A DNA stretch of 26,691 nt from a bacterium (lineage in GTDB: Bacteria > Hydrothermota > Tepidihabitantia > Tepidihabitantales > Tepidihabitantaceae): positions 1-26,691 of the forward strand of contig JAWOHE010000092.1 of assembly GCA_046485285.1 (NCBI GenBank), given 5' to 3'. The notes under the pieces are model-generated. The model was not told where the DNA came from. It saw nothing but the letters and a program-made list of their open reading frames with translations, and searched no databases. Shown here one piece after another: positions 11,791 through 13,981 of this stretch (its first letter is position 1; every line of letters starts with the position of its first letter). The translations under genes were made by a program, and so were the position numbers.

Positions 11791-11829
11791 CATCCGGAGC
11801 GCCTGCGCCGCGCGGGCAGGCGTTGAAAG

Positions 11830-11862
11830 CGTCGCGGGGGCGCTTTGGGCGCCCCCGCGACG
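11830..11862. terminator. GC-rich hairpin between convergent genes, probably a bidirectional terminator
   Basis: Perfect 14-bp stem CGTCGCGGGGGCGC / GCGCCCCCGCGACG with a 5-nt loop; only a short U-run on the minus strand. Confidence 0.6.
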
Positions 11863-11888
11863 TAACCCACCTCTGCTCGTGGCCCCAG

Positions 11889-12110
11889 TCAGATGTCTGC
11901 GCGGCCAGGGTCAGCCGGCCGCTCGCAGTCAAGCATCTCGTAGGTGGCCTGCATCCGGTCCTGGTAGATCCCGACCGCCTCCTCGCTTTCGATGGTCGGT
12001 CGCAGCCCGTCCCCGGCAACGGCGACCGCCCGCGAGGTGACCATCCCGCCCACTACCAGCAGGCCGCCGGCGAGGGCGAGGAGAATCCAGATCGAGGTTG
12101 TCCTGAGCAT
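11889..12110 (-). CDS. Small exported or membrane-anchored hypothetical protein (73 aa), paralog of 12141-12356
   Basis: GGAGG RBS before ATG 12110; N-terminal hydrophobic helix; motif EEAVGIYQDRMQATYEML. Confidence 0.7.
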   Translation of the reverse strand: MLRTTSIWILLALAGGLLVVGGMVTSRAVAVAGDGLRPTIESEEAVGIYQDRMQATYEMLDCERPADPGRADI

Positions 12111-12140
12111 CTCAGCCTCCTCCGTTTTCACGGTACCCGC

Positions 12141-12356
12141 CTAGCGAGTCCAACTGACCGACAGGCCGTCCTCGTCGTGCATCAGCCGGTCGGTTTCCTG
12201 CATCCGCTGCCGGTAGATCTTCGCGCCGTCTTCCGGCGCGACGCCGCGGCCCTCGTGGCGCTCGGCCGCGTGAGCCTCGCGGAGCATCCGGGCACCGGTC
12301 AGTATCAGTCCGAGCGCGAGGGCCAGCAGTGCGGTCTTCAGCATCCAGCTTTTCAT
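12141..12356 (-). CDS. Small exported or membrane-anchored hypothetical protein (71 aa), paralog of 11889-12110
   Basis: AAGGAG RBS 6 nt before ATG 12356; N-terminal hydrophobic helix and AHA site; motif EDGAKIYRQRMQETDRLM. Confidence 0.72.
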   Translation of the reverse strand: MKSWMLKTALLALALGLILTGARMLREAHAAERHEGRGVAPEDGAKIYRQRMQETDRLMHDEDGLSVSWTR

Positions 12357-12391
12357 CACATACTCCTTTTTGCTTGCGGACGACCGAACTA

Positions 12392-12409
12392 ATGCACACT
12401 CTGTGCCAG
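12392..12409 (-). promoter_or_regulatory. sigma54 (RpoN) -24/-12 promoter
   Basis: Minus strand CTGGCACAGAGTGTGCAT, close to the TGGCAC-N5-TTGCW consensus, about 25 nt upstream of the RBS of the small-gene pair. Confidence 0.72.
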
Positions 12410-12560
12410 ATGCCTACCCAGACAGTAAGTGTCATTTCTACAATATGTTATCGTGACAGCCGGGTCCTTGAGGGTTCTGTGTGCACTCGGACGGTGAGAC
12501 ACTCGACGAGTCGTAGAGACGCCTCCCTTCGACCAAGCTATTGCCCTACAGTGATTTATG

Positions 12561-12585
12561 GTGTGTCTCGTCAAATGAGACACAC
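12561..12585. promoter_or_regulatory. Palindromic operator or candidate enhancer-binding-protein UAS
   Basis: Perfect 9-bp inverted repeat GTGTGTCTC-gtcaaat-GAGACACAC, about 150-175 bp upstream of the sigma54 promoter and about 70 bp upstream of the divergent sigma70 -35. Confidence 0.55.
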
Positions 12586-12653
12586 AAGAGGTGCGTGGCA
12601 CAGGTGTCAGAGCCTCGGACAGCCGCCGCCGGGTCGGCTGAGACGGAAAAGCC

Positions 12654-12682
12654 TTGACTCCGTGCGGCCGGAAAGGCATAAT
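12654..12682 (+). promoter_or_regulatory. sigma70-type promoter of the FG-GAP gene
   Basis: TTGACT-N17-CATAAT about 80 nt upstream of ATG 12764. Confidence 0.65.
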
Positions 12683-12763
12683 CCAGTTGACACGACACTC
12701 GCGCCCGGTGCCATCGCGGAGCACCCGCGCGAGGAGACAGTGAGTTCGTCAACAGGAGGAACG

Positions 12764-13981
12764 ATGAGACGGTTGAGAGCAGTGGTGATGATCGGGCTTG
12801 CGGTGGCGCTGCCGGCTGCCGCCCAGGTCCCGCGCTTCCGCGCTGCGGAGCGAATCTCGTCCGGCGGCGTGCCGATCGACCTCGGGTACTACACCGCTCC
12901 GGTGATGTTCGACTGGAACGAGGACGGGCGGAAGGATATGGTCGTCGGCCAGTTCTCCTACGGCCACATCGCGTTCTTCGAGAACGTCGGCGACGACTCG
13001 GCGCCCGAGTTCGCGAGCCACGAGTACCTTCAGGCCAGCGGCCAGGTCATCCAGCTTCCCTACGGCTGATGCATGGGCTCGAGTCCACAGGTCGTGGACT
13101 GGAACTCGGACGGCATCCCGGACATCATCTCTGGCGACCGCAACGGCTACTTCAACGTCTTCATCCGCGACTCGCTGGGCGGGCTCGCGGCTCACATGCA
13201 GTACCGGCTCCTCGACTCGTTGGTCTGGGACGTCGGCTACAACTCCCAGCCGGCGGTGTTCGACTGGGACAACGACGGCAGGAAGGATGTCATTATCGGC
13301 AACGAGAGCTATGAGGTGCGGCTCTACCTCAACCAGGCGACGGACACCTGGCCGCTGTTCCAAGACTACGAACTGGTGACCGCCGGCGGCCAGGCGATAC
13401 GTTTCTACCGAGGCAACCCCTACGTCTTCGACCTCGACCGCGACGGGCTCGATGACCTGATCGTCGGCGAGAACAACGGCTGGGTGCACTTCTTCCGCAA
13501 CGTCGGCAGCATCGGGGCGCCGGGGTTCGCGGCGGGCGAGACGCTCAAGCTCGAAGACGGCTCGCCGCTCCGCTACAACCTCGGCAACTACTACGGCTCG
13601 CGGTGCGGGTTCGGGGACTGGAACAACGACGGGGTCCCGGATTTCCTGCTCGGCACCTACGAGGGCCACGTCGCGCTCTACCTCGGCATCGAAGAAACCG
13701 GCGTCGAGGAGGAACGTCAGGCCGCGGTCGGCAGGTTCGAGGCCGGGCCGGTACCGGGTCGGTCGGTCCGGTTCAGCCTCACGCTCAGCCGGCCGGGACG
13801 GCTCGGAGTGCTCGACGCCGCCGGCAGGGTCGTCCGCCGCTTTGCGGTGGCCGGGGGCGAGGCAAGCCTGGCTTGGGACGGGACCGACGAAAGCGGCGCC
13901 CGGCTCGCGGCCGGCGCCTACTTCGCCCGGCTCAACGTCGGCGGGCAAACCAGGACCGTGCGGTTGATGCTGACCGACTGA
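12764..13981 (+). CDS. Secreted FG-GAP/VCBS-repeat beta-propeller protein with C-terminal FlgD/T9SS-type domain; candidate selenoprotein (in-frame TGA at 13067-13069, codon 102, U-C motif), 405 aa
   Basis: AGGAGG RBS, signal peptide MRRLRAVVMIGLAVALPAAA; five DW/DL-N-x-DG-x-x-D repeats; track ORFs 12329-13069 and 13073-13981 share one frame, joined by TGA-TGC (QLPYG-U-C-MGSSPQVVDWNSDG); SECIS-like hairpin downstream; C-terminal WDGTDESGARLAAGAYF. Confidence 0.82.
13070..13103 (+). promoter_or_regulatory. Candidate bacterial SECIS element
   Basis: Perfect 7-bp stem AGTCCAC (13082-13088)/GTGGACT (13094-13100) with loop AGGTC; loop starts 19 nt after the TGA and has G at position 2; resembles the E. 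coli fdhF apical loop AGGUCU. Confidence 0.72.

Follow-up and report, generated by a model that had tools for sequence, protein, structure and literature searches.

The window analysed here, the 26,691 nucleotides of contig JAWOHE010000092.1 (assembly GCA_046485285.1), contains on its plus strand a reading frame, 12764-13981, that is interrupted internally only once, by a TGA codon at 13067-13069, followed directly by TGC at 13070-13072. The question raised by this locus is whether the TGA is a lesion, a codon read as one of the standard amino acids, or a site at which selenocysteine (Sec, U) is inserted. From comparison of the sequence with its relatives, we conclude that the locus is very probably one intact gene for an exported selenoprotein, in which a vicinal Sec-Cys pair would be carried on an FG-GAP-type beta-propeller and the UGA would be decoded in the canonical way. 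The initial annotation of the window, made from its letters alone, had proposed this reading, and it is supported by the conservation of the TGA column and of both flanks, and by the presence of selA, selB, selC and selD. Its description of a single frame broken by nothing other than the TGA before TGC was borne out; the read-through product has 405 residues (...VIQLPYG-U-C-MGSSPQVVDWNSDG...). The features needed for the argument are the following.

12654-12682, plus strand: promoter-like site TTGACT-17-CATAAT, agreeing with the consensus at 10 of 12 positions (a consensus match only)
12754-12759, plus strand: Shine-Dalgarno sequence AGGAGG, 4 nucleotides 5' of the ATG at 12764 (sequence inspection)
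12764-13981, plus strand: predicted selenoprotein gene, 405 codons and a stop, with one internal TGA (frame reading, homolog searches)
13067-13069, plus strand: TGA, very probably read as Sec (U102) (translation, homolog alignments, metagenome motif search)
13070-13072, plus strand: TGC, Cys103, conserved in relatives with and without Sec (at least 90%, alignment A3)
13074-13108, plus strand: stem-loop resembling a selenocysteine insertion sequence (SECIS), found by folding; its core at 13082-13100 (AGUCCAC-AGGUC-GUGGACU) overlaps codons S107-W113
13979-13981, plus strand: terminal stop, TGA

Conservation of the internal TGA

If the TGA were a site of insertion, relatives of the gene would be expected to share it, together with conserved sequence on both sides, as the initial annotation had pointed out. 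When 41 related genomes were searched in six frames, residue 102 was spanned by 31 matches, and all 31 contained exactly one TGA. Of 272 genomes searched across the phylum, 58 gave at least one match; 93 of the 96 rows obtained span the site, every one of them with a single TGA, and the remaining three are fragments that do not reach residue 102. In the extracted loci, first 20 and later 43, the TGA stood at one and the same column throughout (20/20 and 43/43), at identities of 34-78%, within the motif G-U-C-x-G-[SA]-x-P-[QR]-V-V-D-W-N-x-D-G, and the several genomes that have two to four paralogs carry it in all of them. A search of a metagenome collection with the back-translated TGA motif returned at least 118 contigs with 109 distinct contexts, and the 99 codons downstream of the TGA were open in 117 of the 118 matches listed. 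In the Sec-form copies both halves of the protein are conserved, with no further stops or frameshifts.

These results bear on the possibility that the two open reading frames (ORFs) are the remnants of a pseudogene, or were separated by an error of assembly or sequencing. It is true that gene callers split the gene, and that the database entries are mostly C-terminal fragments, some 295-300 amino acids long, the named ones being labelled candidate division WOR-3; these entries are gene calls cut at the TGA. Against decay or error stand the recurrence of the same TGA in all spanning matches from the 58 genomes, in the metagenome contigs and in all paralogs, the conservation of both halves, and the absence of any other lesion. 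In addition, a Shine-Dalgarno sequence and a promoter-like site occur only before 12764. Sequence inspection and a promoter scan found neither an AGGAGG-like motif nor a promoter-like site upstream of the ATG at 13073, where the lack of a Shine-Dalgarno sequence had already been remarked; the region has three promoter-like sites, compared to 0.1 expected from shuffled sequences. We therefore regard a pseudogene or an error as extremely improbable.

An open frame, taken alone, would also be obtained in a genome that uses TGA as a sense codon throughout (genetic code 4 or 25). However, TGA closes three of the five window genes checked (the selenoprotein gene and two of its four neighbours), and of the terminal stops of 20 homologs six are TGA, ten TAG and four TAA. 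The selA and selB genes of this genome have no internal stops, and an in-frame TGA occurs once, and once only, in every member of the family. TGA is thus an ordinary stop here, as originally argued, and we give genome-wide reassignment practically no weight.

A hairpin behind the TGA and the Sec machinery of the genome

By the general definition given in PMC9312934, the bacterial SECIS element is a stem-loop directly 3' of the UGA. The window copy has a 7-bp stem and an AGGUC loop, begins 15 nucleotides after the UGA, and has lower pairs that extend out to 13074-13108. Finer criteria for bacterial elements concern G and U in the apical loop and the distance from the UGA, and the AGGUC loop presumably resembles that of fdhF. 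A hairpin was present in 43/43 distinct copies, with 6-8 bp, a start 15-17 nucleotides after the U of the UGA, and an apical loop containing G or U. As the UGA lies in the loop ahead of the second propeller blade, folding energies were compared with those of equivalent 33-nucleotide windows before the other blades of the same proteins. The mean minimum free energy was -13.2 kcal/mol for the blade-2 window (n = 43) versus -6.1 kcal/mol for the others (n = 158), and the blade-2 window was the most stable one in 37 of 42 proteins.

Codon choice within the stem is strongly biased. Proline is encoded by CCA in 34/34 copies, compared to 11.4% of the 713 Pro codons elsewhere in these genes; valine by GTG in 34/34, compared to 39.8% of 1026; and serine by AGT in 24/26, compared to 8.5% of 726. 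The codons for the loop Val and for the flanking Gly and Ser vary freely. A second subfamily, in which [IV]-A-V-C-D-W replaces P-Q-V-V-D-W, has a different hairpin, [AG]UCGC...GCGA[UC], in the same place. Over the alignment, the named structure has 77.5% of cells paired, against 25-41% when the partners are slid. Column-wise covariation gave changes on both sides in 4 of 13 pairs, which was no better than shuffles (268/500); because the hairpin of the second subfamily represents a shifted register, there are few column-wise double changes and this measure understates the case. Judged by the aligned genes, the hairpin is under selection at the nucleotide level.

The initial annotation had tied its reading to the presence of the Sec genes, and all four were found in the window's genome (2.34 Mb, 88% complete). 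It encodes a tRNA-Sec (73.2 bits, anticodon TCA), selA (537.7 bits), selB (357.5 bits) and, adjoining selB, a selD (334.8 bits) that has an internal TGA of its own (G000:C37:9674-12542). Across the phylum sample, selA was detected at E <= 1e-30 in 52 of the 58 family-bearing genomes, compared to 122 of all 272. Five of the six carriers without such a selA were re-examined (the sixth being G199), and three of them have a tRNA-Sec of more than 70 bits, so that 55 of the 58 carriers have selA or a strong tRNA-Sec. Conversely, where selA was missing from whole families of this class (f6, 0/11 with selA; f7, 0/2; f8, 0/1; f11, 0/1), no member of the protein family was found. Outside WOR-3, selA was above cut-off in 9/9 genomes with TGA forms.

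Relatives without selenocysteine at column 102

Full-length relatives without a TGA (30-37% identity) have the same architecture and the same loop, in the form G-C-[LMQ]-G-x-x-P-R-V-V-x-W, where the conserved Cys is the equivalent of C103 and Gly takes the place of Sec102; in many of them the last blade has a further conserved Cys (S-R-P-F-V-C-[DE]-W). Among named genomes, this G-C form was found mainly in metagenome-assembled genomes (MAGs) of Planctomycetota; unexpectedly, the G-U-C form turned up as well in MAGs labelled Phycisphaerales, Planctomycetaceae, Desulfobacteraceae and Gemmatimonadota, and in an unclassified bacterium with three copies at one locus. For the G-C form, selA was above cut-off in three of the six genomes sampled, and one complete chromosome was without it. 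This unclassified MAG (L218) has its three G-U-C loops at about 680, 2319 and 3985 in a single 5.6-kb locus, which points to a tandem array of Sec-form copies.

Several results weigh against the selenoprotein reading. In 27 database proteins, the position ahead of the Cys is taken by Gly 25 times, by Asn once and by Trp once; counted by motif hits, Gly accounts for 25 of 28, and it was also found in seven named loci. A search of the metagenome collection with a Cys-Cys motif gave no match, compared to at least 118 for the TGA motif. The Cys-Cys homologs that the initial annotation had expected were therefore not found, and the residue seen at this column in the non-Sec relatives, Gly, is one that it had counted against itself; according to PMC12013277, nearly every known selenoprotein has homologs with Cys in place of Sec. 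The hairpin matched no Rfam family (four chance-level matches, E > 1), the fold of the whole 81 nucleotides was no more stable than shuffles (z = -0.56), and part of the hairpin's conservation is at the protein level, because it overlaps strongly conserved codons. Of the carriers, G173 (a single contig) shows no more of selA than a fragment (70 bits), and none of its tRNA-Sec matches reaches the cut-off, and G198 (87% complete) has nothing convincing of the Sec machinery. Finally, no conserved redox or metal partner gene and no operon partner was found near the gene in 203 loci. The family member of G173, at G173:C1:1577550-1578746, is of the TGA form, and this genome may be losing its Sec trait or may have been assembled with many errors.

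Some of these points could be accommodated if the UGA were recoded without Sec, with the hairpin either helping a near-cognate tRNA (for Trp, Cys, Arg or Gly) to read the codon or setting how much full-length protein is made relative to an N-terminal fragment of 101 residues. Such recoding would fit the occurrence of Gly rather than Cys in the non-Sec relatives, the one database gene call with Trp (P0047), and the two genomes without clear Sec machinery. The distribution of that machinery argues the other way, with selA or a strong tRNA-Sec in 55/58 carriers of the phylum, no member in f6, f7, f8 and f11, and selA in all nine carriers outside WOR-3. P0047 sits inside the WOR-3 TGA clade of the tree described below, and its Trp is most simply a gene call made with TGA as Trp. 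The position of the hairpin and its G/U-containing apical loop are as expected of a bacterial SECIS element, and the 101-residue fragment that termination would leave amounts to a signal peptide and a single blade. Recoding without Sec is thus, in our assessment, unlikely, although it deserves more weight than an artefact. We do not take Gly at the Sec column as a refutation of the selenoprotein reading because the TGA forms occur in Sec-competent genomes, because the hairpin is under selection, and because Sec and Cys do exchange at the neighbouring column, 103.

This exchange was seen in three relatives in which TGA replaces the codon of the conserved Cys (G-U-L-G in L199 and L203, G-U-Q-G in L211), compared to G-C-[LMQ]-G in about 30; the TGA was confirmed at the codon level in L199, L203, L207, L216 and L217. 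On the aligned loops, then, a classical Sec/Cys pair appears to exist at column 103, while Sec102 appears to have Gly counterparts only. In a Kiritimatiellae MAG (L207, 2241-2411) the loop reads P-C-G-U-G-S-P-P-L-N-S-P-Q-V-V-D-W, with the TGA two residues past the Cys; this loop has a four-residue insertion, and its GUCCGC/GUGGAC hairpin is shifted accordingly.

A quick maximum-likelihood tree of 97 rows, from which 17 rows without a recognisable chalcogen loop had been excluded, placed the WOR-3 U-C forms in one clade (45 rows, SH-aLRT 89) with the other U-C forms outside it. The G-C forms made up one clade (31 rows, support 99), in which L199 and L203 were nested separately. The tree gives no direction of change between the U-C and G-C forms. 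One candidate for a Cys-Cys counterpart, the C-C loop of L226 (from an uncultured bacterium), was rejected: the locus encodes a giant protein of at least 1324 amino acids with many FG-GAP blades and several propellers, one blade of which is preceded by an F-C-C-G loop, and this loop aligns best to blade 5 and is not an ortholog of the Sec loop.

Fold, surroundings and possible role of the protein

The read-through protein is divided into three regions, all encoded on the plus strand.

12764-12823, plus strand: predicted Sec-type (general secretory) signal peptide, residues 1-20, with cleavage between PAAA and QV (inspection; helix 3-14 has low confidence in the structure model; homolog N-termini are similar)
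12830-13693, plus strand: predicted five-bladed FG-GAP/VCBS-type propeller, residues about 23-310 (Pfam, AlphaFold2, Foldseek, profile comparison with PDB)
13733-13972, plus strand: predicted C-terminal beta-sandwich, residues 324-403, FlgD_ig / Por_Secre_tail-like (Pfam, NCBIfam, structure model, profile comparison with PDB)

The signal peptide was judged by eye from the hydrophobic N-terminus (MRRLRAVVMIGLAVALPAAA, followed by Q), which the N-termini of the homologs resemble, without an RR motif. In Pfam, FG-GAP_3 (PF13517) matched in five stretches (77.7 bits, cut-off 26.9), and the motif D-x-[DN]-x-D-G-x-x-D, the Ca-type loop of FG-GAP repeats, is present in every blade. An AlphaFold2 model built on a 60-row alignment (mean predicted local distance difference test score 92.8, predicted template modelling score 0.76) consists of five blades of four strands each, a short linker of low confidence and a seven-stranded beta-sandwich at 324-403. 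In this model U102 and C103 lie in a loop just ahead of strand 107-111, the first (innermost) strand of blade 2. This loop, IQLPYGUCMGSSP, is indeed longer than its counterparts in repeats 1, 3 and 4, as had been described from the sequence. The closest folds found by Foldseek were seven-bladed FG-GAP propellers (integrin alpha, BBS2/7, CRTAC1, PorZ; TM-score 0.33-0.41), and profile comparison with PDB gave weak matches to the same propellers and to FlgD. The protein shares PF13517 and the Ca-type motif of each blade with integrin alpha, CRTAC1, BBS2/7 and PorZ but has five blades in the model where those have seven, and none of those is a selenoprotein. The loops of blades 4 and 5 that are equivalent to the U-C loop contain conserved Arg and Ser residues (R216; S279 and R280; alignment A1), which might, speculatively, hint at an anionic ligand. 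A pairing of U102 with C282 was considered as a conserved unit and rejected, as several Sec-form relatives have Val or Leu in place of C282 and one subfamily lacks it.

The domain after the TGA had been described as of FlgD or type IX secretion system (T9SS) type, and the first of these labels was upheld by a match to FlgD_ig over residues 346-386 (35.2 bits, cut-off 27), whereas the T9SS label was not, since Por_Secre_tail (TIGR04183) scored 17.6 bits, under its cut-off of 23. In NCBIfam as a whole the read-through protein gave nine weak families, none above its own cut-off, so that the check for an existing model which had been suggested returned none. The domain is like the T9SS cargo domain (TIGR04183 / PF18962) and the FlgD Ig-like domain in being a C-terminal beta-sandwich of about 80 residues that occurs on many ORFs, and differs from T9SS cargo in that the window copy stays below the TIGR04183 threshold. 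Some database homologs carry PF18962. With the whole protein as query, 57 other places in the window's genome were matched, almost always through the C-terminal domain alone, and a domain common to so many ORFs fits a role in sorting or anchoring. The 57 matches point to a large secreted or surface proteome with one sorting domain. For the T9SS core, the best match to PorV in this genome, incomplete as noted above, was 20.7 bits (cut-off 27), and a search with SprA_N found no match, but its control was also silent everywhere.

Upstream of the gene lies a SurA-like peptidyl-prolyl isomerase (PPIase), and downstream are a GT2 glycosyltransferase, an LPG-synthase-like membrane protein and an aminotransferase. 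In the first set of homologs, eight loci have the SurA-like PPIase directly next to the gene, and with 13 of all 203 loci it is the commonest neighbour; others (nitroreductase, Na/Pi cotransporter, unnamed genes) are rarer. About 970 nucleotides (11791-12763) separate the SurA-like and selenoprotein genes in the window, compared to about 100 in a locus of the same genus (L019). The extra stretch holds two tandem minus-strand ORFs, 11889-12131 and 12141-12359 (80 and 72 amino acids), which have hydrophobic N-termini and a common IY..RMQ.T..M motif, and no Pfam match.

For the selenoprotein reading preferred here, synthesis would follow the route of other SelB/SECIS selenoproteins such as E. coli FdhF, with which the gene has in common the in-frame UGA, the 3' stem-loop and the occurrence with selA, selB, selC and selD. 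SelB would read the hairpin 15 nucleotides past the UGA, and Sec-tRNA(Sec) would insert Sec at codon 102. The family differs from those selenoproteins in fold and location, in having no Cys homolog at the Sec column and in having no Rfam or NCBIfam model. Because the homolog N-termini lack RR motifs, the protein would be exported through the Sec translocation pathway, and would then bind Ca outside the cytoplasm. The U-C loop may lie on the ligand-binding face of the propeller near its central axis, a placement drawn from the strand order of the model and from integrin topology, and the selenol/thiol pair would form the reactive centre.

Two known systems offer analogies for such a centre. The C-terminal redox centre of thioredoxin reductase is Gly-Cys-Sec-Gly, an adjacent Sec/Cys pair flanked by Gly, as in the propeller protein, and able to form a vicinal selenenylsulfide. 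In the propeller protein, however, the order is reversed (G-U-C-x-G) and the pair is predicted to be in an internal, extracytoplasmic loop of a protein with no flavin/NADPH domain; no pyridine nucleotide-disulfide oxidoreductase domain was found in Pfam, and the likeness is functional only. Pyrroloquinoline quinone (PQQ)-dependent alcohol dehydrogenases have a vicinal Cys-Cys disulfide at the active site of a propeller, where it serves in electron transfer. They too place an adjacent chalcogen pair on a beta-propeller, and differ in having eight blades, an unrelated repeat type, the PQQ cofactor and no Sec, so that this likeness is one of analogy only.

If the protein is a selenoprotein, a redox centre that acts through a vicinal selenenylsulfide on an extracytoplasmic substrate would be its likeliest single role, though at somewhat less than even chances; a binding site for a soft metal or for a chalcogen or oxyanion substrate comes next, as a possibility of rather lower weight. 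In relatives the loop has a single chalcogen residue, a conserved Cys (G-C-x-G) or a Sec (G-U-x-G), so that the one at position 103 may be the ancestral functional residue, to which Sec102 was added. A fuller scheme, which we offer only tentatively, is that Sec was added beside an ancestral catalytic Cys to give an inverted thioredoxin-reductase-like selenenylsulfide at the mouth of a five-bladed Ca-propeller, that the pair serves extracytoplasmic redox chemistry (of polysulfide or of a metal or metalloid, for example), and that the protein belongs to a set of secreted selenoproteins in WOR-3 and in several other anaerobic phyla.

To our knowledge, exported bacterial selenoproteins are rare besides periplasmic formate dehydrogenases and hydrogenases. 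A full-text literature search found nothing relevant on selenoproteins with FG-GAP, VCBS, beta-propeller, WOR-3 or type IX secretion. The terms FG-GAP, VCBS, propeller and secret* are absent from the main texts of the BSepDB paper (PMC13326102), a 2026 review (PMC13188914) and the deep-Sep paper (PMC12013277), the supplements of which, or the online BSepDB, may list more. The family seems to be uncatalogued, and seems to have been missed by standard catalogues and gene callers alike. Both its motif and the kind of protein that carries it are out of the ordinary. New here are its occurrence beyond WOR-3, the finding that no Cys form exists among the relatives found at column 102, and the exchange of Sec and Cys at column 103.

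If the reading is true, selenium chemistry would have a new setting in a secreted propeller that carries Sec and Cys side by side. Pipelines of the kind described in PMC12013277, which demand Cys homologs, would discard this family, as its relatives have Gly. The family is large, with at least 118 metagenome contigs, paralogs and members in several phyla, and a corrected annotation would touch many MAGs. Its U-C, lone C and lone U loops are natural variants with which it may be asked what Sec adds to a Cys site.

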